Shown here: positions 6,091 through 17,343 of the stretch, piece after piece
Numbering within the stretch: position 1 is the stretch's first letter
Layout: every line of letters begins with the position of its first letter
Assembly: GCA_964426185.1 (NCBI GenBank)
Contig: CAYRPF010000015.1
Coordinates: 17,320 to 49,089, forward strand
Direction: 5' to 3'
DNA: 31,770 bases
From: an uncultured archaeon
Lineage (GTDB): Archaea > Asgardarchaeota > Lokiarchaeia > Sigyniarchaeales > Promethearchaeaceae
The notes under the pieces: model-generated
Database searches by the model: none
What the model was told of the DNA's origin: nothing
Seen by the model: the letters and a program-made list of their open reading frames with translations, nothing else
Made by a program: the position numbers and the translations under genes

Positions 6091-7215
6091 TTATGAAAAT
6101 AAAATTTGATAAATTCTCGGTAAGAATAAATTGAAATTTTCATGGGATTCAACTAAATCCTTTTTTCTAGATAATAAATAGTAGTATTCGTAATAAAATT
6201 CAATCAGAATTCTCCAAAGGATTTTAGAATATATAGGAAAACTCTTTGACGCGCGTAATACTCCTATAAGATTTTTATAATATAAAACAATAAATTGGGA
6301 ATTCTCTCGCTTAATGTTAATGCTTTCGGTGAATTTCAATGGTTGATCTTCAATAAGTTGAAAAATATCTTCTAATGCACGAATTGATGAAGGTATTAGA
6401 GAATTTTTTTCAGTATTTTTCGGTGAAAATTGCCGATAAATTAAGATTTCACGCGTTTCCAAGTGAATAATTTCAATATCAAGAATAGAGGCACGCCAAT
6501 CGGCATCAGTTAGGGTTTTAATTTTAAATACGGCATGAAATTGAAGGAATGCACCCAAAAAGTGAGTAATATAAAGTAAGAAAAATGTTCCATCCCAATT
6601 TATTAATGGAATTATCAATTTGCTAAAAGTAATTATGTTTATCACTCCAAAAATAAAACCAAACATTAATTTAAGAAGTTCTGCTTTTAACTGGCGAGAA
6701 CTCTTTCTACATAACCAAAACCAATAATAAAAGATGAATAAATTAATGATATTAAAGAGAATGAGGGATAATAATCCCAAAGCAGTATTTTTCCAGCGAA
6801 TAATAGAAATAAAAATGAAAATGAATGAAATAGAAGAAAATATATAAGGAAAATTGGAAATAATTGTGAGATTTCGTTCAAAAATTAAACTTGCACCAAA
6901 ACCTCCAATACCTAATGAATACCAACCAATAATATAAAAATATTCATTGTCCCAACCTGGAAATAGATCCCATATTAAAAATCGATCTAATGAGAGAAAC
7001 ACAAATCCTAAAATATAAGCCAATTGAAGGAATCCATAAGCAAAAAGAATTTGACTGGTAAAGGGAGAACTTTTTTTATAAATAAAACTGCGATATAGAG
7101 CAATACCAGCAGCCTGTAGATATAAAATAATAATGAGAAAAGAAATTGGTATAAAAAAACCGAGATTTGGGGAAGTTGGAAAATATATTTCCAGAATCAT
7201 TGTCAACAATTCCAC
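6091..7215 (-). CDS. Multi-pass (~7 TM) membrane protein with divergent C-terminal longin-like domain
   Basis: Same architecture as the neighbouring gene: TM block, then W..SILDIEIIHLETREILIYRQF..LIPSSIRALEDIF..FIVLYYKNLIGVL. Confidence 0.65.
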   Translation of the reverse strand: MELLTMILEIYFPTSPNLGFFIPISFLIIILYLQAAGIALYRSFIYKKSSPFTSQILFAYGFLQLAYILGFVFLSLDRFLIWDLFPGWDNEYFYIIGWYSLGIGGFGASLIFERNLTIISNFPYIFSSISFIFIFISIIRWKNTALGLLSLILFNIINLFIFYYWFWLCRKSSRQLKAELLKLMFGFIFGVINIITFSKLIIPLINWDGTFFLLYITHFLGAFLQFHAVFKIKTLTDADWRASILDIEIIHLETREILIYRQFSPKNTEKNSLIPSSIRALEDIFQLIEDQPLKFTESINIKRENSQFIVLYYKNLIGVLRASKSFPIYSKILWRILIEFYYEYYYLLSRKKDLVESHENFNLFLPRIYQILFS

Positions 7216-7221
7216 ATTATT

Positions 7222-8082
7222 TTATGAACGTAAAAGTTCAACCATATTTTCTTCATGGAAAATCTCAGCATTTGTAATTGGTATAAACGCAATTTCTCCT
7301 TTTTTAATGGGCCCATAAACGGTGAAATCAATACCTACAAATGGTTCAATCTTTTTGGTTGCTAATATTCTTTGAAATTGGATATTATCCATAGAAATAG
7401 ATAATTTTCGATCTAAAGACGTAGAAATAGGTGAATCATCAGTTATAAAAATGGAATTTAAGGGTTCTTGACTAATTTTTTCAATTTCTATACTATCCGA
7501 ATTTAATTCTTCAGAATCGATGTCTGCAATAGATGTCATTTCGGAATTTTTTATGTTGAGTGAACTATCACTATGAATTTCGGTTTTATTATTTAAATCT
7601 TCTCCATCTAAGTTAGATTCTGGGAACGAAATAAAATTATTCGGACTTCGCAATGGTTGTAATATCTGTTGTTTAGCTTTGGAAATTCCTCTAAATGCAG
7701 GATGCAACTGTTGGTAAAACCTTTTTTCAAAGCTAAATAAGGTTTCTTCCTGAATTGGTTCATTATGTTGAGCAGCTTTAATTATTTTTTCTTCTCGAAT
7801 TGCTAAAAAATCTGAGATCATATATTGAATATTGGCAAGAGATTTCTGAATTATCAACTGAATAGTTAAATTCTCGGCTTCTTTCAGTTGTCGTCGGAGT
7901 TCATTGCCTAAAAGACGGATTTGGGGAAAAAATCTTTCTTGATCAATAAGTTTCTGCAATTTTTTGGATGAATGTGCTCGTTTCCAAGCTCGAAATAGTT
8001 GATTATATATTTTTTCTTGAGTTATTCCATCCATTTTTATTGCTTCCGATTCTGATTTAATCATTTGTGGTTGAATTATCAC
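7222..8082 (-). CDS. gins51: GINS complex subunit Gins51 (Gins15) with long acidic linker
   Basis: Helical A domain (AWKRA..LQKL..LAIREEKII..LFSFEKRFY) and C-terminal B domain (KIEPFVGIDFTVYGPIKKGEIAFIPITNAEIF); directly downstream of priS. Start may be a later ATG. Confidence 0.88.
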   Translation of the reverse strand: MIIQPQMIKSESEAIKMDGITQEKIYNQLFRAWKRAHSSKKLQKLIDQERFFPQIRLLGNELRRQLKEAENLTIQLIIQKSLANIQYMISDFLAIREEKIIKAAQHNEPIQEETLFSFEKRFYQQLHPAFRGISKAKQQILQPLRSPNNFISFPESNLDGEDLNNKTEIHSDSSLNIKNSEMTSIADIDSEELNSDSIEIEKISQEPLNSIFITDDSPISTSLDRKLSISMDNIQFQRILATKKIEPFVGIDFTVYGPIKKGEIAFIPITNAEIFHEENMVELLRS

Positions 8083-8119
8083 TTTTGCTTGCCAATGTTA
8101 TGTATGCATTCAATTTTTA

Positions 8120-9394
8120 TTAATTTTTTATTAATTCCGCGACATCTTTGCACAAAAGAAAAATTCCAACATTTAATGGAAGCGTATATTCTTGACCATG
8201 AATTAAATTATCATATATCTTATTTCCAATGCGTATTGGAGGGCAAATTGGCGCGGTAATCTTCAGAGTTAACCGATTGGGGCTATTTTGTGGAAATGTA
8301 AGAGCATCAACTAAGGGATCAAACTCATCCAATTTATCATAGGGAACATCCACCACTCTTAATCCTGCTTTTCCATGTATTGACCCTTCTAAGCGGATTA
8401 AACGATGAAGATCGATTGAAACCACCACATCTATGTCAGCTTTAATTCGATCCCGTAAAATCTCGAAAATACGATGCCAAGTAGCAAGACCTACATGGGG
8501 AATTCCCCAAATGCGATTCTTAGATTCGATTCGATGCATTAATTCTAATCTTTGGTCGATAATATGGTGTAAAACATTAGAGCGAATCGGAGTTCCATAT
8601 CGCGGCTTGGTAAAGACTTCTTGAATGGCATTTTTTCCTTTTGCCAAGACTTGATAGAATTCATACGCAATTTTTCCCGGCCATCCAGGTTGATCAATAG
8701 TAAATCCAACCATATTCGCTTGAATGGTTTTAAAATTCCAAACATTATAAGAAAAACCTTGGCCTGTAACATAATCTGCAATCTCTCTTCTTTCTTCTTG
8801 ATCTAAAGCACGAAAAACTTCCGATTCTATGCGAACATGATAACCACGGTGACCAGAAAAGTTGAGTTTAATCGCAGAAAGAGGAATATTAAAATCTTTT
8901 AGTAAAAATCCGTCAATCAAGTGATGAACTTGTTCTTTCGAAATATTTAGGCATTCATCACAGATCCAAACCACCTTTTTAAATTTCTTATTATGGCAAT
9001 CGGGACATTCTTCAGGTTTATCCCCTATCAGTAATTTACCACAATTTTTGCACATTACGTAATTGTGAGTATGCTGACAAGAAGTAGGAATATGATCTGA
9101 ATCAATATCTACCACGAAATCACAACCTAAATACCCTTTATTCTCCATTTTATCTGCAGATGGAATAGAATAAATACTGGCACTGCGGTAACTATGCCTT
9201 GGAGCATATTTTATCAAATAATTTAATAGAAAAGATTTATCAGGATAACCAATATGTCTTTGCATTCCCGGATAATCCCAGCGAATAAAGGCAAATTCTC
9301 TTTGATTTAAGTTGCTTATCGCTGGGTAATCGTTAAAATGCGACTTGTAATATGCTTGAAACAATTTTTGTAAGTATAATTGGGTTAAATTCAT
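8120..9394 (-). CDS. priS: DNA primase small (catalytic) subunit
   Basis: QREFAF, DFVVDID, FSGHRGYHV, DVVVSIDLHRLIRLEGSIHGK. Confidence 0.96.
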   Translation of the reverse strand: MNLTQLYLQKLFQAYYKSHFNDYPAISNLNQREFAFIRWDYPGMQRHIGYPDKSFLLNYLIKYAPRHSYRSASIYSIPSADKMENKGYLGCDFVVDIDSDHIPTSCQHTHNYVMCKNCGKLLIGDKPEECPDCHNKKFKKVVWICDECLNISKEQVHHLIDGFLLKDFNIPLSAIKLNFSGHRGYHVRIESEVFRALDQEERREIADYVTGQGFSYNVWNFKTIQANMVGFTIDQPGWPGKIAYEFYQVLAKGKNAIQEVFTKPRYGTPIRSNVLHHIIDQRLELMHRIESKNRIWGIPHVGLATWHRIFEILRDRIKADIDVVVSIDLHRLIRLEGSIHGKAGLRVVDVPYDKLDEFDPLVDALTFPQNSPNRLTLKITAPICPPIRIGNKIYDNLIHGQEYTLPLNVGIFLLCKDVAELIKN

Positions 9395-9400
9395 AACAGA

Positions 9401-10729
9401 TCACTTTTCTTTGGATGGATTGGTTGGCTTTGATGAAGATGATGAAGATGATGAAGTTTGAGAACATGGAAAAGATTGTGAAGAATGTGAAGTTGAAGAA
9501 GATGAAGTGTTTGAAGTATTTGAAGGAATTTGGGTCCTGTGAATTCTGTTTAATTCAACTTTTTTCCAGAAAATATAATCGTTAATGGGATTTTTTATTG
9601 GATGAATAGTTCCATCTTTCCATTTTGCACCTTGTACACAAAGTTTATCCCCAAATTGTGGATTATCTGCTTTGCATAAACGAAAACTTTTCAATTTCGC
9701 ACAGTTGTACATTTTATACTTCTTTCCTTTTCCCCCCGAACCAGCCGCAAATTCCACTTGATACCTCGCAATTGATTCATCGAAGTCAGGGATAGTTCTA
9801 AAAATATCCACAGTTTCTTCTATAGTATGGTTTGTATTCAGAAAATAAAAAGCAATGGCTAAGCGTTCATTATGAGATAAGTTTTCACCTTGTGAAGCAC
9901 GATATAGAATCATTTTCATACAAGGCGGGAATAAATCATATTCAATTTTTTCATCACTTAAAAAACCCGAAGAAGAAAACTTTTTTGTATTTTCCTCCAC
10001 AAATTTTTCTACAACATTTAAAATCCGTTTAATAGGCGGAATTTTTTCGATTTCTTCCTTAATATCTGCATCAATGATATTGTAATCAGGTTTAGTTTTA
10101 TTTCTAACCATTTCTCTTAATAATAAAATTACGTCATCACGGATTAGGTGTACTTTACCATTTTGGAAAATCCGATTAATTAATTTCCATCGATCCCCAG
10201 TTAATTTTGTTGCAACCTTCAGATACGAATGAAAATCCATTTGAAAAGGATATATTACATTATCAATTTGGTTTTTGGGAGTTACTTCACAAAGTAATCC
10301 AAGATTACGGCAGATACTTTGTAATTGAATATTATTATATTTAATACCAGACCGAGTACGGGTCGAAATTGTAGATTTTAATTCATTTTGACAATGCTTG
10401 GCATAGATATTAGCCATGGCATTTCCAAGTATACGATTTCCTAATAATGAAAGAAGCATTTGAATAACGGGATACATCGCTAAGTTTGTGACATCACCTG
10501 ATGAAAAGGGATAATTTTCCTTGGATTCTGCACAATAATTAAAAAATTTAATAATGCGAGATTCTAATTCAGGAAATTCGCTAAAAAGCTGTTGGATCAT
10601 GACGACTAAAGATATCTTCTCCGCATCTTCATCTGAAAATCCCAATTTTTCCATCAATATAGCACTACTGCCATTAAGCCATGGAAATTGGAGAAAATAT
10701 TGAGAAGGAAGAGAAGGTTTGGAACTCAT
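9401..10729 (-). CDS. priL: DNA primase large subunit with [4Fe-4S] C-terminal domain and Ser-rich tail
   Basis: WKLINR..NGKV, FPPCM, NLSHNERL, PDFDESIARYQVE, YNCAKLKSFRLC, LC..IKNP. Confidence 0.94.
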   Translation of the reverse strand: MSSKPSLPSQYFLQFPWLNGSSAILMEKLGFSDEDAEKISLVVMIQQLFSEFPELESRIIKFFNYCAESKENYPFSSGDVTNLAMYPVIQMLLSLLGNRILGNAMANIYAKHCQNELKSTISTRTRSGIKYNNIQLQSICRNLGLLCEVTPKNQIDNVIYPFQMDFHSYLKVATKLTGDRWKLINRIFQNGKVHLIRDDVILLLREMVRNKTKPDYNIIDADIKEEIEKIPPIKRILNVVEKFVEENTKKFSSSGFLSDEKIEYDLFPPCMKMILYRASQGENLSHNERLAIAFYFLNTNHTIEETVDIFRTIPDFDESIARYQVEFAAGSGGKGKKYKMYNCAKLKSFRLCKADNPQFGDKLCVQGAKWKDGTIHPIKNPINDYIFWKKVELNRIHRTQIPSNTSNTSSSSTSHSSQSFPCSQTSSSSSSSSKPTNPSKEK

Positions 10730-10873
10730 AATTACTCACTTCTGAGTATATATTTTATGATATATGGAGCTTCCGAAGAAAGTTCTGCCTTTATAAATTC
10801 ACTGTATTCAAATTTAATAATTTGATCAAATTTTTTAAATAGTAAAAAATTTGTTTTACAGAAGTGAAAAACT

Positions 10874-12307
10874 ATGAAGATTAATGAAATTATTGCTTCA
10901 TGGAAGCCTGTTAAACGTTGGGTTACCCTAATTAGCTTTCTATTATCTTTCTCGACATTAGCTTTGCTAATATGGGTAATTTCTTTGCCAAGAAATATGC
11001 AGTTGTTTAAGTGGAGCCCTCCACAAAGACAGATTTTTATTATAGTTTGCATCGTTGCAGCTATTGTGCCATTAGGATTTGTATTTGATTTCATTTTTCG
11101 AATGAAAAAAAATGTAATTTCAAAAAAAATCCCTGGAAAATATGTATATGCCTTAGTATTAATTGGAATAATACTACCAAGCGCATATTTGATTTATCTA
11201 TCTCCTTACCATCACGTGGGGGATAAAGCACCTGAACTCATGATTATTGATCAACCAGGTGTGAGTGGTTATCCAAATTTAGCCGTAATGTTTTATACTC
11301 AAAAGGCCACCACCGAATTCATTAATTATGGCACAAGTATGTCTGACATGGACACTCAAGTTCTTGATTCGAATCCGATCCATTCACATGTTTTTGTTTT
11401 AAAAGATCTAAATCCCGGTATACAATATTTTTACCAAATTAATGGAGAAGGAAAAATATATAATTTTACCTATTTTCCTGCATCTACCAATGATTTAAAA
11501 TTCGGAATTAGCTCCGATGTGCATATAGGAGCAGAAGATTGTAATTTAACGGCAGTTACTGGAATTTTGGAACAAATGGTTAATCCTACAAATTCATATA
11601 ATGCCTTTTTCTGTTTAGGAGATATTGTTGATATGGGAAATGATGACAGCATGTATCAAGAACAAATTGAATTATTCTCCCCATATACAACCGCAATTCC
11701 ATTTCGGAACATGATAGGTAATCACGATGGATGGTTCGGTGGAGTAGAATTTTGGAAGGACTATTTTTATCCTGTAAATGCACCAAGTAATTCCAGCGAT
11801 TCTCAGCTGTGGCATCAATATGATTTTGGTCCCAATATTCATGTTTTTAATTTAGACTTAGAATGGGGAATAGAATCATACACGGAAGCTCAAAAGGTTT
11901 GGTTTGAAGAAAAACTGCAAGCATTGGATCCCGATGACTGGATTATCGTTATGAACCATGCCTATTATTACGCTTCAAGCACAGAATATGATGGAATCCC
12001 TTGGTATGACAATCCTGATATGATTAACACTTTCCAACCATTATTTAAACAATATGGGGTGGATTTAGTGTTCGCAGGGCATGATCACCAAATGGAGCAC
12101 ATCGCCCAAGATGGTGTTGACTACTTCATTGTTGGTGCAATGGGCGGTTATCGTGATAAAGATCCAACTTTTTACTCGGAAAATTCGCAATTCTTTGATA
12201 ACACTCATTTTGGATTTGCAGATGTGCAATTTAATGGAGTTAATGTCACAGTTTCATTCAGAACTCCAGAAAATACTTTGCTTTATAATGTTACAATTAA
12301 TCAATAA
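10874..12307 (+). CDS. Membrane-anchored purple-acid-phosphatase-like metallophosphoesterase
   Basis: Three N-terminal TM helices, FN3-like region (LKDLNPGIQYFYQI), and motifs SDVH, GDIVD, GNHD, VMNH, GHDH. Confidence 0.88.
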   Translation: MKINEIIASWKPVKRWVTLISFLLSFSTLALLIWVISLPRNMQLFKWSPPQRQIFIIVCIVAAIVPLGFVFDFIFRMKKNVISKKIPGKYVYALVLIGIILPSAYLIYLSPYHHVGDKAPELMIIDQPGVSGYPNLAVMFYTQKATTEFINYGTSMSDMDTQVLDSNPIHSHVFVLKDLNPGIQYFYQINGEGKIYNFTYFPASTNDLKFGISSDVHIGAEDCNLTAVTGILEQMVNPTNSYNAFFCLGDIVDMGNDDSMYQEQIELFSPYTTAIPFRNMIGNHDGWFGGVEFWKDYFYPVNAPSNSSDSQLWHQYDFGPNIHVFNLDLEWGIESYTEAQKVWFEEKLQALDPDDWIIVMNHAYYYASSTEYDGIPWYDNPDMINTFQPLFKQYGVDLVFAGHDHQMEHIAQDGVDYFIVGAMGGYRDKDPTFYSENSQFFDNTHFGFADVQFNGVNVTVSFRTPENTLLYNVTINQ

Positions 12308-12385: not shown

Positions 12386-12437
12386 CACTCTTCTCCGATT
12401 ATCGCATCGTTTATCGATAATCATCATCGCGAACGAT
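12386..12437 (-). ncRNA. Eukaryote-type (Loki-type) SECIS element in the 3' UTR of the UU selenoprotein gene
   Basis: Minus strand: AUGA (12427-12424), UGAUUAUCG (12423-12415), loop AUAAACGAUG, CGAUAAUCG (12404-12396), GA (12395-12394). Nine contiguous base pairs (one U-G), an AAA in the loop and an AUGA/GA core, starting 15 nt after the TAA. Confidence 0.85.
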
Positions 12438-12442
12438 TAAAT

Positions 12443-12772
12443 TTAATGTAATATCTTTTTCAAAAAAAGTTCAGAGCGATTACTAAGAGAAATATACGCA
12501 TCTTGGTTATTTTCTAAGATGGAAGGCTCAATCCAAATTGGAATTTCTAAGTTTTTCATATACAGTTCAACAAGTTTTTTATGTAAACTTTGCTCCAATT
12601 GTACTCGATCTTCTGCGGAAAATTTCTGAGAATAATCGCAAATTCTCACATGATAGAAATCTATCAATCCTCATCATTGGCTGGTTTTTTCCAGAGTTAT
12701 TAATAACACTGGTGTTTTCATTTTCTTTGCTTCAGAATTCACATATTTCATAGCTTTCGTAGAAATTTTCAT
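12443..12772 (-). CDS. HesB-like / CC-Se-motif family selenoprotein with two adjacent Sec (U33-U34), 109 aa
   Basis: SD GGGTG 5 nt before ATG 12772 (alternative ATG 12784 overlaps the upstream TAA). Reads MKISTKAMKYVNSEAKKMKTPVLLITLEKTSQ-TGA(12676-74)-TGA(12673-71)-GLIDFYHVRICD..., in frame with track ORF 12443..12667. Aligns with the Cys-Cys paralog upstream; SECIS downstream. Confidence 0.85.
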
Positions 12773-12783
12773 CCCATCACCCA

Positions 12784-13074
12784 TTATGTATCCGATATTG
12801 ATTTTTCTAAAAAATTTAACGCTTTAATATTTCCAAAGGTTCTAATGTCAATTATTCCTGAATTCATATATTTTTCGGTATTTCGAGAGAAATATACTTT
12901 GATATCATCAAATTTTTTGATATCTACAATTTCTTCTTTACGAATCTTTTTTCCAAGGATAATACGCGGGATAAATTCAGTACTGCAACAAGATCTCATA
13001 GTGATTTCTACAATGGTTAATTCTTGTATGCTTTTTTCTTGAAGGTATTTTTTAGCTTTTTCGGTTATGTGCAT
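12784..13074 (-). CDS. HesB-like / CC-Se-motif family protein (Cys-Cys form)
   Basis: MHITEKAKKYL..TMRSCCSTEFIPRIILGK..DIKVYF; ATG 13074 follows GGGAG (track start 13104 is probably too long). Confidence 0.8.
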   Translation of the reverse strand: MHITEKAKKYLQEKSIQELTIVEITMRSCCSTEFIPRIILGKKIRKEEIVDIKKFDDIKVYFSRNTEKYMNSGIIDIRTFGNIKALNFLEKSISDT

Positions 13075-13109
13075 GATTTCTCCCTTGATGAAATATCCTT
13101 GCAAAAAAA

Positions 13110-13520
13110 TTAGGGATCTAAATATTTAACAGTTAAATTTGCAATATGTTCTGCCAATTTAGTGCAATATTCATGATTTTTCCATTTAAAGTCATTTAAA
13201 GGTCCTTTTTCAATTTCTTCATATTCTTGGGGGTTGAAAAATTCATTTAAGAATATACTTTCCACGGGTTTAACTCCTATACTTTCGACTCCCTTTTTGG
13301 CGCAGGCTTTATCGCATCCATCTATAGTAATACATGGAAATTTTTTCACAAAATTTTGTTCTTGTTCATCTCCCGCTAAAAAGAGGGGAACGCAAACCGT
13401 GGTTGTCATTCCTTTTAAGTATTCATCCAAAACTTTTCTTGTAGCAAGGCGCGAAATGGTTCCACACGGATATTCTTCCCCACTACATGAAAGTAGTCCA
13501 ACAAATTTTGGTTTAAACAT
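13110..13520 (-). CDS. DGC-domain putative Zn/metal-binding protein
   Basis: SCSG..GTISR, VC, ITIDGCDKACA. Confidence 0.9.
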   Translation of the reverse strand: MFKPKFVGLLSCSGEEYPCGTISRLATRKVLDEYLKGMTTTVCVPLFLAGDEQEQNFVKKFPCITIDGCDKACAKKGVESIGVKPVESIFLNEFFNPQEYEEIEKGPLNDFKWKNHEYCTKLAEHIANLTVKYLDP

Positions 13521-13940
13521 TTATGCTTCACCGTGTACACTAACTAATTCATCAATTAACTCTGAGATTTCGATTCCAATTCGTTTTGCGAGTTGCTGAC
13601 CATCTTGACCAGGATCAGAAACATTTCTGGTATTAACCTTCAAATCACGATTTTTTACCAAGAATTTCGCCACTAAAAAAGATTTAGAAACTTCTGCATC
13701 TTTTTCAAGTAAGTGTTTATAGGCACACCTTTTTGAGCAACCGTCAATAGTGATATTATAATTATGATGCACTTTTGCTACAGATTCATCATCACCAGTA
13801 ACCAATCGAGCCAAGCATAATAATTCCGCATTTTCGGGTTTTAAATTTTCCTTTATCTCAAAAGCAGCCCATCGGCTAATCGTACCGAATGCTTTTCCAA
13901 TACCACTACACGGTAATACATTTACTTTGGTTTTGTTCAA
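13521..13940 (-). CDS. DGC-domain putative Zn/metal-binding protein
   Basis: PCSG..GTISR, LCL, ITIDGCSKRCA; TTG start overlaps the upstream TGA. Confidence 0.9.
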   Translation of the reverse strand: MNKTKVNVLPCSGIGKAFGTISRWAAFEIKENLKPENAELLCLARLVTGDDESVAKVHHNYNITIDGCSKRCAYKHLLEKDAEVSKSFLVAKFLVKNRDLKVNTRNVSDPGQDGQQLAKRIGIEISELIDELVSVHGEA

Positions 13941-14833
13941 TATTGTAACCCCTCTTCTTTAATTTTTTCTTCTAAAAATTCAAAATACTGATATGGATTC
14001 ATCAAATCATCGATTTCTTCCTTATAATTAGGACATTTTACTAAAACAATCCATCCCTTCAAATATGGATCTTCATTAATCCATTCAGGATATTCTTCTA
14101 ATTCATGATTTACAGCCAGAACTTCCCCGCTGAATGGAGTTAATACTTCATTTACAGTTTTACTGGACTCGATATTTGCGACGGCTTCGAATTGATCGAT
14201 TTTATCTCCTATTTTAGGCAGTTCACATATTAAAATATCGGCCAATTTTGTTTGCAAATAATCGGTAATCCCAATGAAGAATTTCCCTTCCCCAATATGA
14301 TAAGCCCATGCTTCATTCCAATTAAAAAAGAGGTTTTTATCATTCACTGGAACTTTGAAATGAAATTTTGAAAACTCCGCTTCCAAAAACTGAGAGTATT
14401 CGGGATTAAATTCAACCTTATTTTCTGGTTTGGTTTCCATATTTTGACTTTTTTCTAAAAAAACCTCGATTTGGCTTAGAATCTGATTTGATATGGATTT
14501 AACGGCTTCATGATCTTGATAATCAAGGGTAGCCTGACCTTTCTGTGGAAGTTTTATATCTTTTATGATTTTAGGTATGCTTATAATTAAATTTGGTTTT
14601 ATTTTGCGCTGATTTAAGATTTTATTGACACATTGAATAGCACATCCATTTAAAGCAATAGTATTGTCACCCAAAATGCTTTCTTTGTATTCACCTGCGG
14701 CTATTTGAGATATGGAAGGCTCTAATGTTATTTTTGACGGATTTGCGCGTTTTAAATGTAAAATGGCTAAAGTGCAAAGTTGGCCTAATAATTTTTCACA
14801 TCCCATACAAGGTATAACAATGTTTTTCTTCAT
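13937..14833 (-). CDS. Fusion: N-terminal DGC-like domain + C-terminal GcvH-like lipoyl-carrier domain
   Basis: PCMG..IALNGCAIQCV (DGC variant), then NEAWA..IGITDYLQTKLADI..IESSKTVNEVLTPFSGEV..NEDPYLKGWI with the lipoyl Lys intact. Confidence 0.9.
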   Translation of the reverse strand: MKKNIVIPCMGCEKLLGQLCTLAILHLKRANPSKITLEPSISQIAAGEYKESILGDNTIALNGCAIQCVNKILNQRKIKPNLIISIPKIIKDIKLPQKGQATLDYQDHEAVKSISNQILSQIEVFLEKSQNMETKPENKVEFNPEYSQFLEAEFSKFHFKVPVNDKNLFFNWNEAWAYHIGEGKFFIGITDYLQTKLADILICELPKIGDKIDQFEAVANIESSKTVNEVLTPFSGEVLAVNHELEEYPEWINEDPYLKGWIVLVKCPNYKEEIDDLMNPYQYFEFLEEKIKEEGLQY

Positions 14834-14843
14834 GACTTGTACC

Positions 14844-15194
14844 TCACTTTGAATTTAAATCTTCGATTGAGTTGAGAACATCTTCAAGATACATTAAACC
14901 AGGTCCACCACTCATTACCACCGCAACTAAACTCGCTTCAAGAATCTCTTCTTTGGTTGCCCCAGCTTGCAATGCATTAGCCACATGCCAAGTAATGCAA
15001 CGATCGCATTGAGATTTGACGGACAATGCAACCGCAATCAATTCTTTAAATTTTTTAGATAAAGCTCCAGCTTTTTCAGTTTCAAATATAAATTTTTGAA
15101 AACTTTGCATCCATTTTGGATTAAATTCTCCTATTTCTTTCATACTTTCGTTAATTTTTGTTAATTTTTCTTTGACATTCACTTTGATATTCAC
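14844..15194 (-). CDS. Carboxymuconolactone decarboxylase / AhpD-core family protein
   Basis: GALSKKFKELIAVALSVKSQCDRCITWH..GATKEEILEA..MSGGPG with CxxC; start may be GTG 15182 after AGGTGA. Confidence 0.92.
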   Translation of the reverse strand: MNIKVNVKEKLTKINESMKEIGEFNPKWMQSFQKFIFETEKAGALSKKFKELIAVALSVKSQCDRCITWHVANALQAGATKEEILEASLVAVVMSGGPGLMYLEDVLNSIEDLNSK

Positions 15195-15207
15195 CTTTTT
15201 TAGAGAT

Positions 15208-15531
15208 TTATTTTGATTTTAAGCTTGCTTTGATTTGTTTAATTTGGGCTAAAACTTCCTTTTTGGGTTGAAAAATCATGGCATCTTTCGGGCACATTTT
15301 CAAACAAGCTTGGCAAAATACAACACAATTTTTAGGATTTACAACATGAACTTTCCCATCAACCATAGAATAAACCCCATGTGCGCAAAAATTAACACAA
15401 TCTCCGCAATCGTTACATTTGGAATAATCCAAAGTTGGGAACCAATCAATATCCTTTCGATCAACACCCATAAAGCGATGTACTTGTTTAGGAATATTAT
15501 TCGTTTGAATCCGCTCCTTGGTTAATAACAC
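15208..15531 (-). CDS. 2x[4Fe-4S] ferredoxin family protein
   Basis: CNDCGDCVNFCAHGV and CVVFCQACLKMCP; start codon uncertain. Confidence 0.92.
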   Translation of the reverse strand: MLLTKERIQTNNIPKQVHRFMGVDRKDIDWFPTLDYSKCNDCGDCVNFCAHGVYSMVDGKVHVVNPKNCVVFCQACLKMCPKDAMIFQPKKEVLAQIKQIKASLKSK

Positions 15532-15895
15532 CCCAATCCGATAGTTGAGATTCTATCGCTTCGAAAGCTTCATCTGTGGTCATATTTCTTACATCGAGAG
15601 GTCTGACCCATTCTTCAAAATCTAATCCCGCTTCTTTAAAACCATGTCCAATCAATTTTCTTTGCATATTAGGAGAACAGCCTGCTAAGAAGTATTTTAT
15701 GCCATTTTTTCTCACTAAATCAATCATATTCGCTATGAATCGATCTCCATCTACTTCACACATTTGAGGATGGACAATTGCCCATTCTACTGGTAATGCC
15801 AACCTAACTTGATTGATTAAGTCCCAAACATTCATGGTGGCAAATCCAGGGCAATCACCAGTACAAACGCAGAGTATAAAACCAACCTTTGACAT
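15497..15895 (-). CDS. Stand-alone heterodisulfide reductase subunit A N-terminal-like domain protein
   Basis: KVGFILCVC..HPQMC..LAGCSP..FKEAGL..LDVRN mirrors the HdrA N-terminal domain; no FAD domain. Confidence 0.8.
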   Translation of the reverse strand: MSKVGFILCVCTGDCPGFATMNVWDLINQVRLALPVEWAIVHPQMCEVDGDRFIANMIDLVRKNGIKYFLAGCSPNMQRKLIGHGFKEAGLDFEEWVRPLDVRNMTTDEAFEAIESQLSDWGVINQGADSNE

Positions 15896-15918
15896 GTGAA
15901 ATATAGGTTCTAATTAAA

Positions 15919-15942
15919 TTAAAATGTTTTGAAAAATTTTAA
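15919..15942 (-). promoter_or_regulatory. BRE/TATA promoter of the redox operon with overlapping imperfect palindrome (possible ArsR operator)
   Basis: TTAAAAT-GTTTTGAAAA-ATTTTAA; minus-strand TTTTAA box ~24 nt before ATG 15895. Confidence 0.45.
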
Positions 15943-15993
15943 ACTGGCTATGTAAATGTAATGGGATTTGAGTAAAGGAAAGAGCAAGGAGAT

Positions 15994-16341
15994 CTATAAG
16001 GTTTTTTTGAGATTTGCAGCAGTGTAGTATATAGTAAAATGACCCCGATTTCGTCCAACAATTAACCCCGCTTCTTCTAACTTTTTAATGTGATGCGTTA
16101 TAGAGCCTTCGGATAATCCGAGGATTTTTGACAGCGAACAATTGCACTGTTCACTTCTTTGAAGAAGATGGTATATCAATAATCGATGTTTGTTGGCCAA
16201 GGCACTGTATTGTTTTAATTCTTTTATGAAATCTTGAGATTGGATAATCTTTTCCTTAATATTTTGGTTTTTAGTCAAAAAATCGGTAGAATTTTGAGAA
16301 CTATCGCAAACTTTGAGAAAATCTTTGATTCTGGAATTCAC
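15994..16341 (-). CDS. ArsR/SmtB family transcriptional regulator with alpha3 CxC motif
   Basis: SALANKHRLLI..EQCNCSLSKILGLSEGSITHHIKKLEEAGLI..GHFTIYY (ELCVCDL-like). Confidence 0.92.
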   Translation of the reverse strand: MNSRIKDFLKVCDSSQNSTDFLTKNQNIKEKIIQSQDFIKELKQYSALANKHRLLIYHLLQRSEQCNCSLSKILGLSEGSITHHIKKLEEAGLIVGRNRGHFTIYYTAANLKKTL

Positions 16342-16364: not shown

Positions 16365-16400
16365 TTTAAATTGTTTTGATCATTGTAAAAATAATTTAAA
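16365..16400 (-). promoter_or_regulatory. arsR promoter with inverted repeat
   Basis: TTTAAATTGTTTT...AAAATAATTTAAA (12/13 inverted match); a 14-mer is nearly identical to the operon promoter. Confidence 0.4.
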
Positions 16401-16557: not shown

Positions 16558-17343
16558 TTAGTCTTCGTACATTGAATCGTCGTCTTCTTCGACCCGCGGA
16601 GCCAGAAAATAAAGCACATGACTCGAATTTAATATATCAAAGTTAATTTTCAACGGAGCTTCCGTACGCAGTTCCGCGGTCAAATTTTGTGCAATAGAAC
16701 CCATTTTTAATATATTTTTCAGAAAAGCGATAGAGAAAACCCCCACACTTTGCTCTTTGAAGTCAGACGAAATCAGTTCCTCTTTTTCCAACACGTATTC
16801 CATATCTCCGATGCTCCCGTTGGTGGAAAAGGTTAAGTTTGGCATAGCTTGAATTTGCAAAACTTCGGCAAAGATTTCAGCATCTTTGATGGCTTCATCT
16901 AAATAGCCGATATTGAAGGTACATATATTATCAAATTCTAAATTGTTTAGAGCATTTACATCAATCTCTTCCCCATCATAATCGATCAAACTCATGGTAA
17001 ACCTTCGTGCTTTCTTGGCTTCTGGAGGTTTCATAGCAATAATCAGCTTTTTTGCTTCAGGATCGTGAGATAATGTAATCTCGTCATTGCTACCACTTCT
17101 TTTCAGGATTTTTACCATATCTTCTAAATTTATTCCTAATTCATAGAGTTGATCCGCTTGAAATTCATCCAGATCATCTTTATGTAAAACTAAGGAAACC
17201 AAACAGATGTGGGAAACATCCATGGCAGTCATTGAAATCCCTATTTCTGGATCTACTTTCAACACCGTTTCACTGATGATGGAAGAAATTGCATCAAATA
17301 TGCCACGAATCATTTTTGCATCTTTAATCTTCACGGTAAACAT
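16558..17343 (-). CDS. pcn: DNA polymerase sliding clamp PCNA
   Basis: AMDVSHICLV, GINLEDMVKILKR, YFLAPRVE. Confidence 0.97.
   Translation of the reverse strand: MFTVKIKDAKMIRGIFDAISSIISETVLKVDPEIGISMTAMDVSHICLVSLVLHKDDLDEFQADQLYELGINLEDMVKILKRSGSNDEITLSHDPEAKKLIIAMKPPEAKKARRFTMSLIDYDGEEIDVNALNNLEFDNICTFNIGYLDEAIKDAEIFAEVLQIQAMPNLTFSTNGSIGDMEYVLEKEELISSDFKEQSVGVFSIAFLKNILKMGSIAQNLTAELRTEAPLKINFDILNSSHVLYFLAPRVEEDDDSMYED

Follow-up and report, generated by a model that had tools for sequence, protein, structure and literature searches.

A nine-gene lipoyl, Fe-S, and thiol-selenol operon under an ArsR regulator in a Lokiarchaeial genome, and a proposed role in metalloid handling

Results

The DNA studied here, called the window below, is a stretch of 31,770 nucleotides (nt) from an uncultured archaeon of the Promethearchaeaceae (Asgardarchaeota, Lokiarchaeia; assembly GCA_964426185.1, contig CAYRPF010000015.1, positions 17,320 to 49,089). 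On its minus strand, from 16341 to 12386, nine genes form what we read as a single ArsR-controlled operon, in which every product carries clustered cysteine (Cys) or selenocysteine (Sec, U). We lean towards the view that this operon is an As(III)-derepressed relay of lipoyl, Fe-S, and thiol-selenol groups for the handling of arsenic or a similar metalloid. Five of its genes recur together in other anaerobes, and we read this core cassette as an accessory module of arsenic/metalloid defence. A preliminary description of the DNA, made from the letters alone, had offered an open list of functions: handling of reactive sulfur, selenium, or arsenic species, oxidative stress, or Fe-S delivery. That list can be narrowed towards arsenic or a related metalloid because the core lies among ars genes in Bacteria as well as in Archaea, and because Sec-Sec (U-U) forms of an operon protein family stand beside ArsR-ACR3 in Clostridia; its other entries are weighed below.

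All nine genes were found co-directional on the minus strand, as first described, and the impression of a tightly packed unit fronted by ArsR was borne out. A spacer of 98 nt separates arsR from the second gene, C132, and the later junctions are overlaps of 35, 4, or 1 nt or otherwise gaps of 0–13 nt. Such close packing makes co-transcription of the nine genes the simplest reading. The features, all on the minus strand, are as follows.

16367..16379, candidate operator variant TCAAAACAATTTA upstream of arsR, akin to the spacer motif between arsR and C132
15994..16341, arsR, an ArsR/SmtB repressor with C-N-C (HTH_5, NF033788)
15920..15932, candidate operator TCAAAACATTTTA, ~25 nt 5' of the C132 start codon
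15497..15895, C132, a free HdrA-N-like Fe-S module of 132 aa (profile match to HdrA 7bkb_A)
15208..15531, 2x[4Fe-4S] ferredoxin (Fer4_9, Fer4_7)
14844..15194, AhpD/CMD-family protein with C-D-R-C (CMD, E 7e-19)
13937..14833, DGC-GcvH fusion (DGC, E 7e-11; GCV_H, E 7e-32)
13521..13940, DGC2, a free DGC protein (PF08859, E 1e-15)
13110..13520, DGC3, a free DGC protein (PF08859, E 7e-17)
12784..13104, CC gene, the Cys-Cys form of the CC/Se-motif family (precomputed PF28096)
12443..12772, UU gene, Sec-Sec, placed in the CC/Se family by profile only (TGA TGA at 12676-12671)
12386..12437, eukaryote-like Sec insertion sequence (SECIS) in the 3' untranslated region (UTR) of the UU gene, recognized by sequence and fold

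A five-gene core recurs beside ars genes

Core loci were located in species-representative genomes with a pattern search built on the C132 alignment, which gave 343 confirmed places. The best 80 of these 343 loci were used for the neighbourhood counts, and ars genes were counted within 8 kb. Four neighbour clusters (u198, c30, c26, and c58) are at least partly antisense artefacts of greedy open reading frame (ORF) picking, u198 being antisense to DGC3, and were left out of the counts. What recurs is a five-gene core made of C132, the ferredoxin, the DGC-GcvH fusion, and two DGC genes, usually with a CxC ArsR. The nine genes had been treated at the outset as a co-conserved set, and the neighbourhood comparison does not support this; only the core and ArsR recur. 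Occurrence in the 80 loci was as follows.

DGC-GcvH fusion, 77/80 loci
C132, 68/80 loci (an undercount that reflects ORF picking)
Ferredoxin, following C132, 64/80 loci
ArsR, 63/80 loci
Lpd-like reductase, 28/80 loci
LplA, 16/80 loci
Low-molecular-weight phosphatase (LMWP) type ArsC, 19/80 loci
ArsA, 16/80 loci
ACR3, 13/80 loci
ArsD, 8/80 loci
At least one ars structural gene (ArsC-LMWP, ArsA, ACR3, ArsD, or an ArsP-type permease) within 8 kb, 40/80 loci
ArsR or an ars structural gene, 69/80 loci

These 80 loci span Asgard archaea, Bathyarchaeia, many Firmicutes (including Acetobacterium, Eubacterium, and Clostridium ljungdahlii), Actinomycetes, Armatimonadota, Planctomycetes, and Bacteroidales. 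The arsenic link holds separately in each domain, through ACR3 in the archaeal loci and through ArsC, ArsA, and ArsD in the bacterial ones. Further recurrent neighbours are ArsP-type permeases as well as thioredoxin (Trx) and CcdA, the latter two in 12–14 of the 80 loci.

Among close kin, we compared 41 genomes, namely the window genome (3.26 Mb, 92% complete) and 40 relatives, of which Candidatus Harpocratesius repetitus is the closest; Lokiarchaeum ossiferum belongs to the same family. The fusion was present in 5 of the 41, the window genome and the relatives G001, G010, G036, and G038, and such a patchy distribution fits an accessory trait. All four relatives keep the order C132-ferredoxin-fusion-DGC-DGC with an ArsR nearby, and their cassette loci have no CMD, CC, or UU gene. 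In G036 and G038, ACR3 and ArsR adjoin the core. The islands of these two Asgard genomes (L015:1201-6293 and L016) hold the cassette with ACR3, two ArsRs, and a fourth DGC gene, together with u97, a 94-aa Cys protein of no known family that occurs in 15 of the 80 loci, and a single-Cys CC/Se-like gene accompanied by Trx and CcdA; in G036 this last group lies 2–4 kb from ACR3.

Proteins of the core

C132 gave no match in Pfam or NCBIfam. A profile of five orthologues aligns to residues 7-93 of HdrA (Protein Data Bank (PDB) 7bkb_A, E 6e-4), and C9, C11, C46, and C73 fall in register with the four HdrA cluster cysteines. The earlier label of an HdrA-N-like protein therefore stands, and binding of a cluster is predicted. 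Likeness to HdrA covers ~90 residues and these four cysteines, whereas C132 is free-standing, lacks the FAD and ferredoxin domains, and has a fifth invariant Cys within C-V-C-T-G-D/K-C-P-G (the invariant set in alignment A1 is C9, C11, C15, C46, and C73).

The presence of a ferredoxin and a true lipoyl carrier in the operon is supported by domain matches (Fer4_9, E 1e-8, and the GCV_H match listed above). The ferredoxin has a conserved N-terminal extension, and its best NCBIfam neighbours are HgcB-type, far under the cut-off. We also observed an unusual spacing in its second cluster motif, C-x3-C-x2-C-x3-C-P. In the fusion, the lipoyl Lys sits in E-S-S-K, and this residue (K225) is kept in 77 of 78 fusions. 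The AlphaFold model of the fusion has a predicted local distance difference test score (pLDDT) of 87, and its GcvH domain superposes on solved H-proteins with template modelling (TM) scores of 0.90–0.94. The fusion thus has the H-protein fold and the lipoyl Lys, without genomic linkage to GcvT or GcvP. The only GCV_T gene of the window genome (C63:4420-5202) adjoins a separate, free housekeeping gcvH (C63:3596-3955) and not the fusion. The same genome carries LplA on C8 and an Lpd-like gene on C5.

The strict conservation of the lipoyl Lys, the arsenic context, and the dedicated LplA in 16 loci would also suit an explanation in terms of lipoyl maintenance under arsenic stress. On this view, the GcvH half of the fusion would serve as a reserve lipoyl relay, in the way GcvH does in the lipoyl assembly of Bacillus, and the Fe-S and DGC proteins would rebuild or free lipoyl groups blocked by arsenite, dihydrolipoyl groups being the classical arsenite target. 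We give this little credence, given that no LipA, LipB, LipM, or LipL-type gene is found among the recurrent neighbours, that many hosts are acetogens or Asgard archaea, generally thought to be poor in lipoylated enzymes, and that three DGC domains and two Fe-S proteins are left unexplained.

All three DGC domains of the window genome reside in the operon. Free DGC proteins have four invariant Cys (43 sequences), while the DGC half of the fusion has just three conserved ones (C9, C64, and C68). The DGC3 model (pLDDT 94) shows a flavodoxin-like alpha/beta sandwich whose four Cys lie where strands end. Neither a single-sequence nor a profile search found a sequence relative of DGC in the PDB, and Foldseek returned no match below E 0.03 for the DGC3 structure. 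The best Z from VIA-align, 8.5, was obtained with generic Rossmann or flavodoxin-like domains and does not rise above background. A profile-profile comparison of DGC with C132 was not significant (probability 1.45%), though the Cys-bearing strand ends line up.

The CC and UU proteins

The last two genes had been labelled HesB-like in the preliminary description, and this label has to be replaced. The CC gene, with the motif S-C-C-S-T and a likely start at the ATG at 13074, is by its family matches a member of the CC/Se-motif family (PF28096). Its product reaches E 3e-8 and 33.4 bits against NF041239 (cut-off 40), its Atlas neighbours are all CC_Se_fam, and the HesB/IscA-like signal is weak (PF01521, 23 bits, under the cut-off). 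A word-based homologue search returned only the protein itself; an exhaustive search gave three representatives. The homologues P0002-P0004 carry PF28096. The UU protein may belong to the same family, to which it is joined by profile only: although BLASTP gave no alignment between CC and UU and the UU protein had no match to NF041239 at E 0.1, a profile built only from CC forms scores the UU protein at 10.4 bits (E 3e-5, as a single comparison) with UU on the CC column. The same profile gives 29 bits with a relative of UU in the Asgard genome G006.

The UU gene is real and its coding for Sec is supported, as four lines of evidence agree. The microbial-mat contig L106 conserves both TGAs and both flanks in the same CC-then-UU tandem; G006 has U-C at the site aligned to the UU pair; the window genome has one tRNA-Sec, and its SelD gene contains a single TGA in frame; and the 3' element has SelD-like SECIS geometry. 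That element consists of AUGA (12427-12424), a U.G pair and an 8-bp helix, the loop AUAAACGAUG, and GA (12395-12394), and the helix appears in both the minimum free energy (MFE) and centroid folds. The 3'UTR element of SelD reads GUGA-U-helix-UAAAC and has AAA at +12 to +14, as does the UU element. The published Asgard AUGA_GA SECIS model also fits the UU element (PMC11227280). As an in-genome SECIS reference, the SelD gene at C26:1-1308 is followed by GUGA...UAAAC...GA. The UU gene with a SECIS, as first described, is thus upheld. The only Rfam matches were weak ones to C/D-box snoRNAs, caused by the k-turn motif; no SECIS family matched at either gathering or E-value thresholds. A C/D sRNA in place of the 3' hairpin is unlikely, given that no D box is present.

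A sceptical reading would be that there is no system at all, with small Cys-rich genes packed by chance, the double TGA truly ending translation, and the ORF beyond it being spurious. An AT-rich genome such as this one has many short ORFs and weak motif matches, and both the missing BLASTP similarity between CC and UU and the missing Rfam match for the SECIS would be expected. The conservation data already contradict this reading, which we find hardly credible: gene order is kept across two domains in 77 of 80 loci, the frame is conserved on both sides of the TGA TGA in L106, the SECIS geometry resembles that of SelD, and a tRNA-Sec is present.

To place the family more widely, we used samples of 301 Asgard genomes and 301 Clostridia genomes taken class-wide, with ~1.5 kb fetched on each side of each Clostridia locus. 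In the Asgard sample, the CC/Se family is rare: the profile search found it in 3 of 301 genomes, and a search with the UU protein added the U-C form in G006. The order DGC3-then-CC is repeated in the Lokiarchaeia-like contigs L106-L109, of which L106 adds UU. In C. ljungdahlii and two Clostridium metagenome-assembled genomes (MAGs), a C-U selenoprotein gene lies 14–40 nt upstream of C132. Inclusion of CC and UU in a conserved set is not supported as first stated: they are confined to a subclade and, in another form, to Clostridium. The C. ljungdahlii ERI-2 gene (L096:7658-7966; others in L087 and L067) has 102 codons, one of which is an in-frame TGA (T-C-U-S-G). Since standard ORF calling leaves only a 64-codon fragment, public records probably lack this gene or show it split.

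In the Clostridia sample, the family occurs in 21 of 301 genomes. Seven loci have U-U forms encoded by two adjacent TGAs, of which four are beside ArsR-ACR3 and two are beside an ArsP_1-like permease fragment and a PadR regulator; the other 20 Clostridia family loci have no ars or cassette gene within ~1.5 kb per side. The ars-linked U-U genes (L138 and L140-L144, from genomes G384, G605, G579, G473, G348, and G527) share G-U-U-S/M-V/A-F. The motif of the CC branch, C-C-S-T, and the C-terminal CC seen in P0002-P0004, which the window CC protein lacks, both occur in ArsD genes of cassette loci. This resemblance to ArsD is a motif analogy, with no homology shown.

The regulator and its candidate operator

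The window regulator is an ArsR/SmtB protein (HTH_5, E 5e-12; NF033788, 55.8 bits) with As(III)-type cysteines, its metal specificity being predicted. C66 and C68 of its C-N-C occupy the place of the As(III)-binding C-V-C. Across 91 cassette-linked ArsRs plus that of the window, the two CxC cysteines are kept in 88 and 86 (~95%), and the consensus of the cassette-linked set is E-L-C-V-C-E/D-L.

When the arsR-C132 spacer was compared with the orthologous spacer of G001, TCAAAACATTTTA was the sole conserved island, the G001 version being TCAAAACGTTTTA. G001 has two further copies, CAAAACATTTTA, in the orthologous region upstream of arsR, so that its orthologous spacers hold three motif copies in total, and these are the only conserved islands. 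We infer that ArsR may bind TCAAAACATTTTA, which occurs once in the 3.26-Mb genome; the operon thus appears to have a private operator in its own genome. A divergent arsR paralogue and an acr3 arsenite pump stand elsewhere, at C96:2336-4068, with a perfect palindrome, ATAATCTTTTAAAGATTAT, in their spacer. An operator common to the operon and this pump was considered and rejected, given the different palindrome and the lack of TCAAAACATTTTA there.

The AhpD/CMD insert and a possible stress relay

The AhpD/CMD protein invites comparison with Lpd-DlaT-AhpD-AhpC of Mycobacterium tuberculosis, a peroxidase relay that runs through a protein-bound lipoyl group. A general relay of this type, serving thiol, disulfide, or peroxide stress and not specific to arsenic, would account for a CxxC AhpD/CMD protein inside the operon adjoining the lipoyl carrier, for the Trx and CcdA genes that are common near the cassette, and for the CC/Se homologues that adjoin thioredoxin in other Asgard genomes. 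The Lpd-like reductase co-encoded in 28 of the 80 cassette loci is a further likeness to the mycobacterial relay. We nevertheless regard such a relay as quite unlikely. CMD is found beside the cassette in just 2–3 of 81 loci, the only others being L066 (an Acetobacterium MAG, where it is directly upstream of C132) and perhaps L088, which speaks against CMD as a conserved cassette member. The operon has no peroxiredoxin such as AhpC, its regulator is an As(III)-type CxC ArsR and no peroxide sensor, and it is ars genes that are enriched nearby. The lipoyl domain belongs to the H-protein and not the E2 type, and the mycobacterial relay has no counterpart of the Fe-S proteins and DGC domains.

From its distribution, the AhpD/CMD gene is best described as a rare, lineage-specific insert. 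Since nearly all cassettes lack AhpD, it cannot be an obligatory step in the electron path put forward in the preliminary description, which would run from ferredoxin/HdrA-N over the lipoyl domain and AhpD to CC/UU. The nearest NCBIfam models, all under the cut-off, are TIGR04169, MduS, ArsM_AhpD_UU, and GSU3128, which represent arsenic- or selenium-linked AhpD proteins, while the match to TIGR00777 (ahpD) is 18 bits against a cut-off of 192. A second CMD/AhpD paralogue, with C-E-W-C, closes a gene cluster at C48:20006-23833 of the same genome. By eye, this cluster has two YeeE/YedE-like membrane halves and small TusA-like proteins, and it is possibly a sulfur or selenium uptake unit.

Genomic surroundings

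A Pfam search of the operon and ten flanking genes found no pump, arsC, gcvT/P, or CCG-type Hdr subunit, in agreement, over that span, with the initial statement that gcvP/T, hdrB/C, an arsenite pump, and arsC are missing from the window. The flanking genes encode primase, GINS, PCNA, and phosphoesterases. The operon sits amid replication genes, with primase large and small subunits, GINS, and PCNA at 6091-12307 and 16558-17343 of the window. In the sister species G001, the cassette has other neighbours than in the window, which suggests that it moves between genomic sites.

Discussion

Proposed working of the operon

The make-up of the operon, the recurrence of its core, the core's association with ars genes, and Sec coding are observed; each chemical step of the following scheme is our inference. 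As(III) would bind at the C-x-C of ArsR and derepress the operon at its private operator TCAAAACATTTTA. The lipoyl arm of the GcvH domain would then be held as a dithiol. In Archaea, electrons would pass from reduced ferredoxin to the operon ferredoxin, on to the HdrA-N-like [4Fe-4S] module, and from there to the lipoyl arm; in many bacterial versions, they would come from NAD(P)H through the co-encoded Lpd-like reductase. Next, the dihydrolipoyl arm, together with the Cys clusters in all three DGC domains, may either capture and pass on As(III) or power arsenic-thiol chemistry. In the window genome, the AhpD-like CxxC, Cys-Cys, and Sec-Sec proteins would lengthen the relay, with the vicinal CC and UU pairs as likely metalloid-binding or disulfide/diselenide-exchanging ends.

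Several observations weigh against an arsenic-specific relay. Pump and arsC are absent from the window, and the arsR-acr3 pair of the genome, on C96, does not share the operator. An LMWP-type ArsC was not found anywhere in the genome by tblastn with six queries; no search was aimed at the Grx-type (glutaredoxin) ArsC. An ars structural gene within 8 kb is missing from half of the 80 loci, and CxC ArsR/SmtB regulators can sense other thiophilic species. The fold of the DGC domain does not point to a function, and the four Cys might do no more than bind Zn or an Fe-S cluster. The window UU protein has no direct similarity to the bacterial U-U forms, and the link runs only through the family profile.

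Comparison with known systems

No paper describing the cassette was found in the open full-text literature, to which the search was limited (subscription journals were outside its scope) and which included a Fusibacter arsenate-respiration paper; the claim that the system is undescribed thus stands within that scope. Known ars operons share with the window operon a CxC ArsR in front and clustered cysteines, and arsC, arsA, arsD, acr3, or arsP surround the cassette in half of the sampled loci. They differ in that no known Ars protein is among the nine products and that the window has neither pump nor reductase. To our knowledge, no described ars system includes lipoate, DGC domains, an HdrA-N-like module, or selenocysteine.

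The sHdr-LbpA system of sulfur oxidation uses a GcvH-like lipoate-binding protein outside glycine cleavage (Cao et al. 2018, PMC6067878). It resembles the cassette in having a lipoyl carrier not tied to glycine cleavage, an Fe-S component derived from Hdr, and, in many loci, a dedicated lipoate ligase. By analogy, the lipoyl arm and the Cys/Sec proteins might carry persulfide or selenide, for Fe-S/Se delivery or selenite detoxification. The pairing of a GcvH-like carrier with an HdrA-derived module points in that direction, as do the presence of selenoproteins here, the weak HesB/IscA-like signal of the CC protein, and, in 18 of the 80 loci, NifS-like and PF04060 Fe-S genes adjoining the cassette. 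We still judge sulfur or selenium trafficking unlikely. Neither HdrB/C (CCG) nor DsrE nor TusA was found among the nine products or the recurrent neighbours of the 80 loci, and the cassette likewise has no full HdrA flavoprotein, an FAD domain being absent from all nine products. LbpA systems have no DGC domains, whereas the lipoyl carrier here is fused to one, and the neighbours of the cassette are arsenic genes and not those of sulfur oxidation. The NifS pair is limited to a Firmicute subset, in which it is divergently transcribed, and the CC/UU add-ons are rare among cassettes.

A 2026 review gives the CC/Se-motif family as a predicted family of bacterial selenoproteins that was first noticed in Moorella and has one Sec (PMC13188914). 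The window proteins have their Sec or Cys pair at the family motif position, and U-containing forms are found in bacteria; they differ in that both CC and UU fall under the NCBIfam cut-off and in that two adjacent Sec occur, here and in seven Clostridia loci. CC/Se is absent from the five and the seven families given in two papers on the Asgard selenoproteome (PMC4989117, PMC11227280). No report of the family in Archaea, of its function, or of an arsenic link was found in the searched literature. What is new here is the link of the cassette to CC/Se, of which the ars-linked U-U forms of Clostridia are a part; new as well are the Sec-Sec extension and its eukaryote-like SECIS, the insertion of AhpD, and the apparently private operator.

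A more far-reaching proposal is that protein-bound lipoic acid is the working group of an As(III)-induced defence module in two domains, fed by ferredoxin/HdrA-type or Lpd proteins, with CC/Se proteins (Cys-Cys, Cys-Sec, or Sec-Sec) as ArsD-like metalloid partners. In the window, the partner would be Sec-Sec by means of a eukaryote-like SECIS, which would make it the eighth Asgard selenoprotein family. We put this forward tentatively, as an idea that may well prove wrong.

Significance

A five-gene module stands beside ars genes in hundreds of anaerobic species with no assigned role, though arsenic resistance is among the best-studied detoxification systems. If the arsenic relay proposed here is true, the lipoyl dithiol as a working group would be a new chemical principle in arsenic biology, and the DGC domain and the free HdrA-N module, both of them orphan families, would gain functions. 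The link to the cassette is the first functional context for the orphan CC/Se selenoprotein family. Culturable hosts of the cassette (Clostridium ljungdahlii, Acetobacterium, and Eubacterium) make the idea directly testable. For the Asgard archaea, the Sec-Sec protein lengthens a short list of selenoproteins, which draw interest because of the question of how the Sec machinery of eukaryotes arose.

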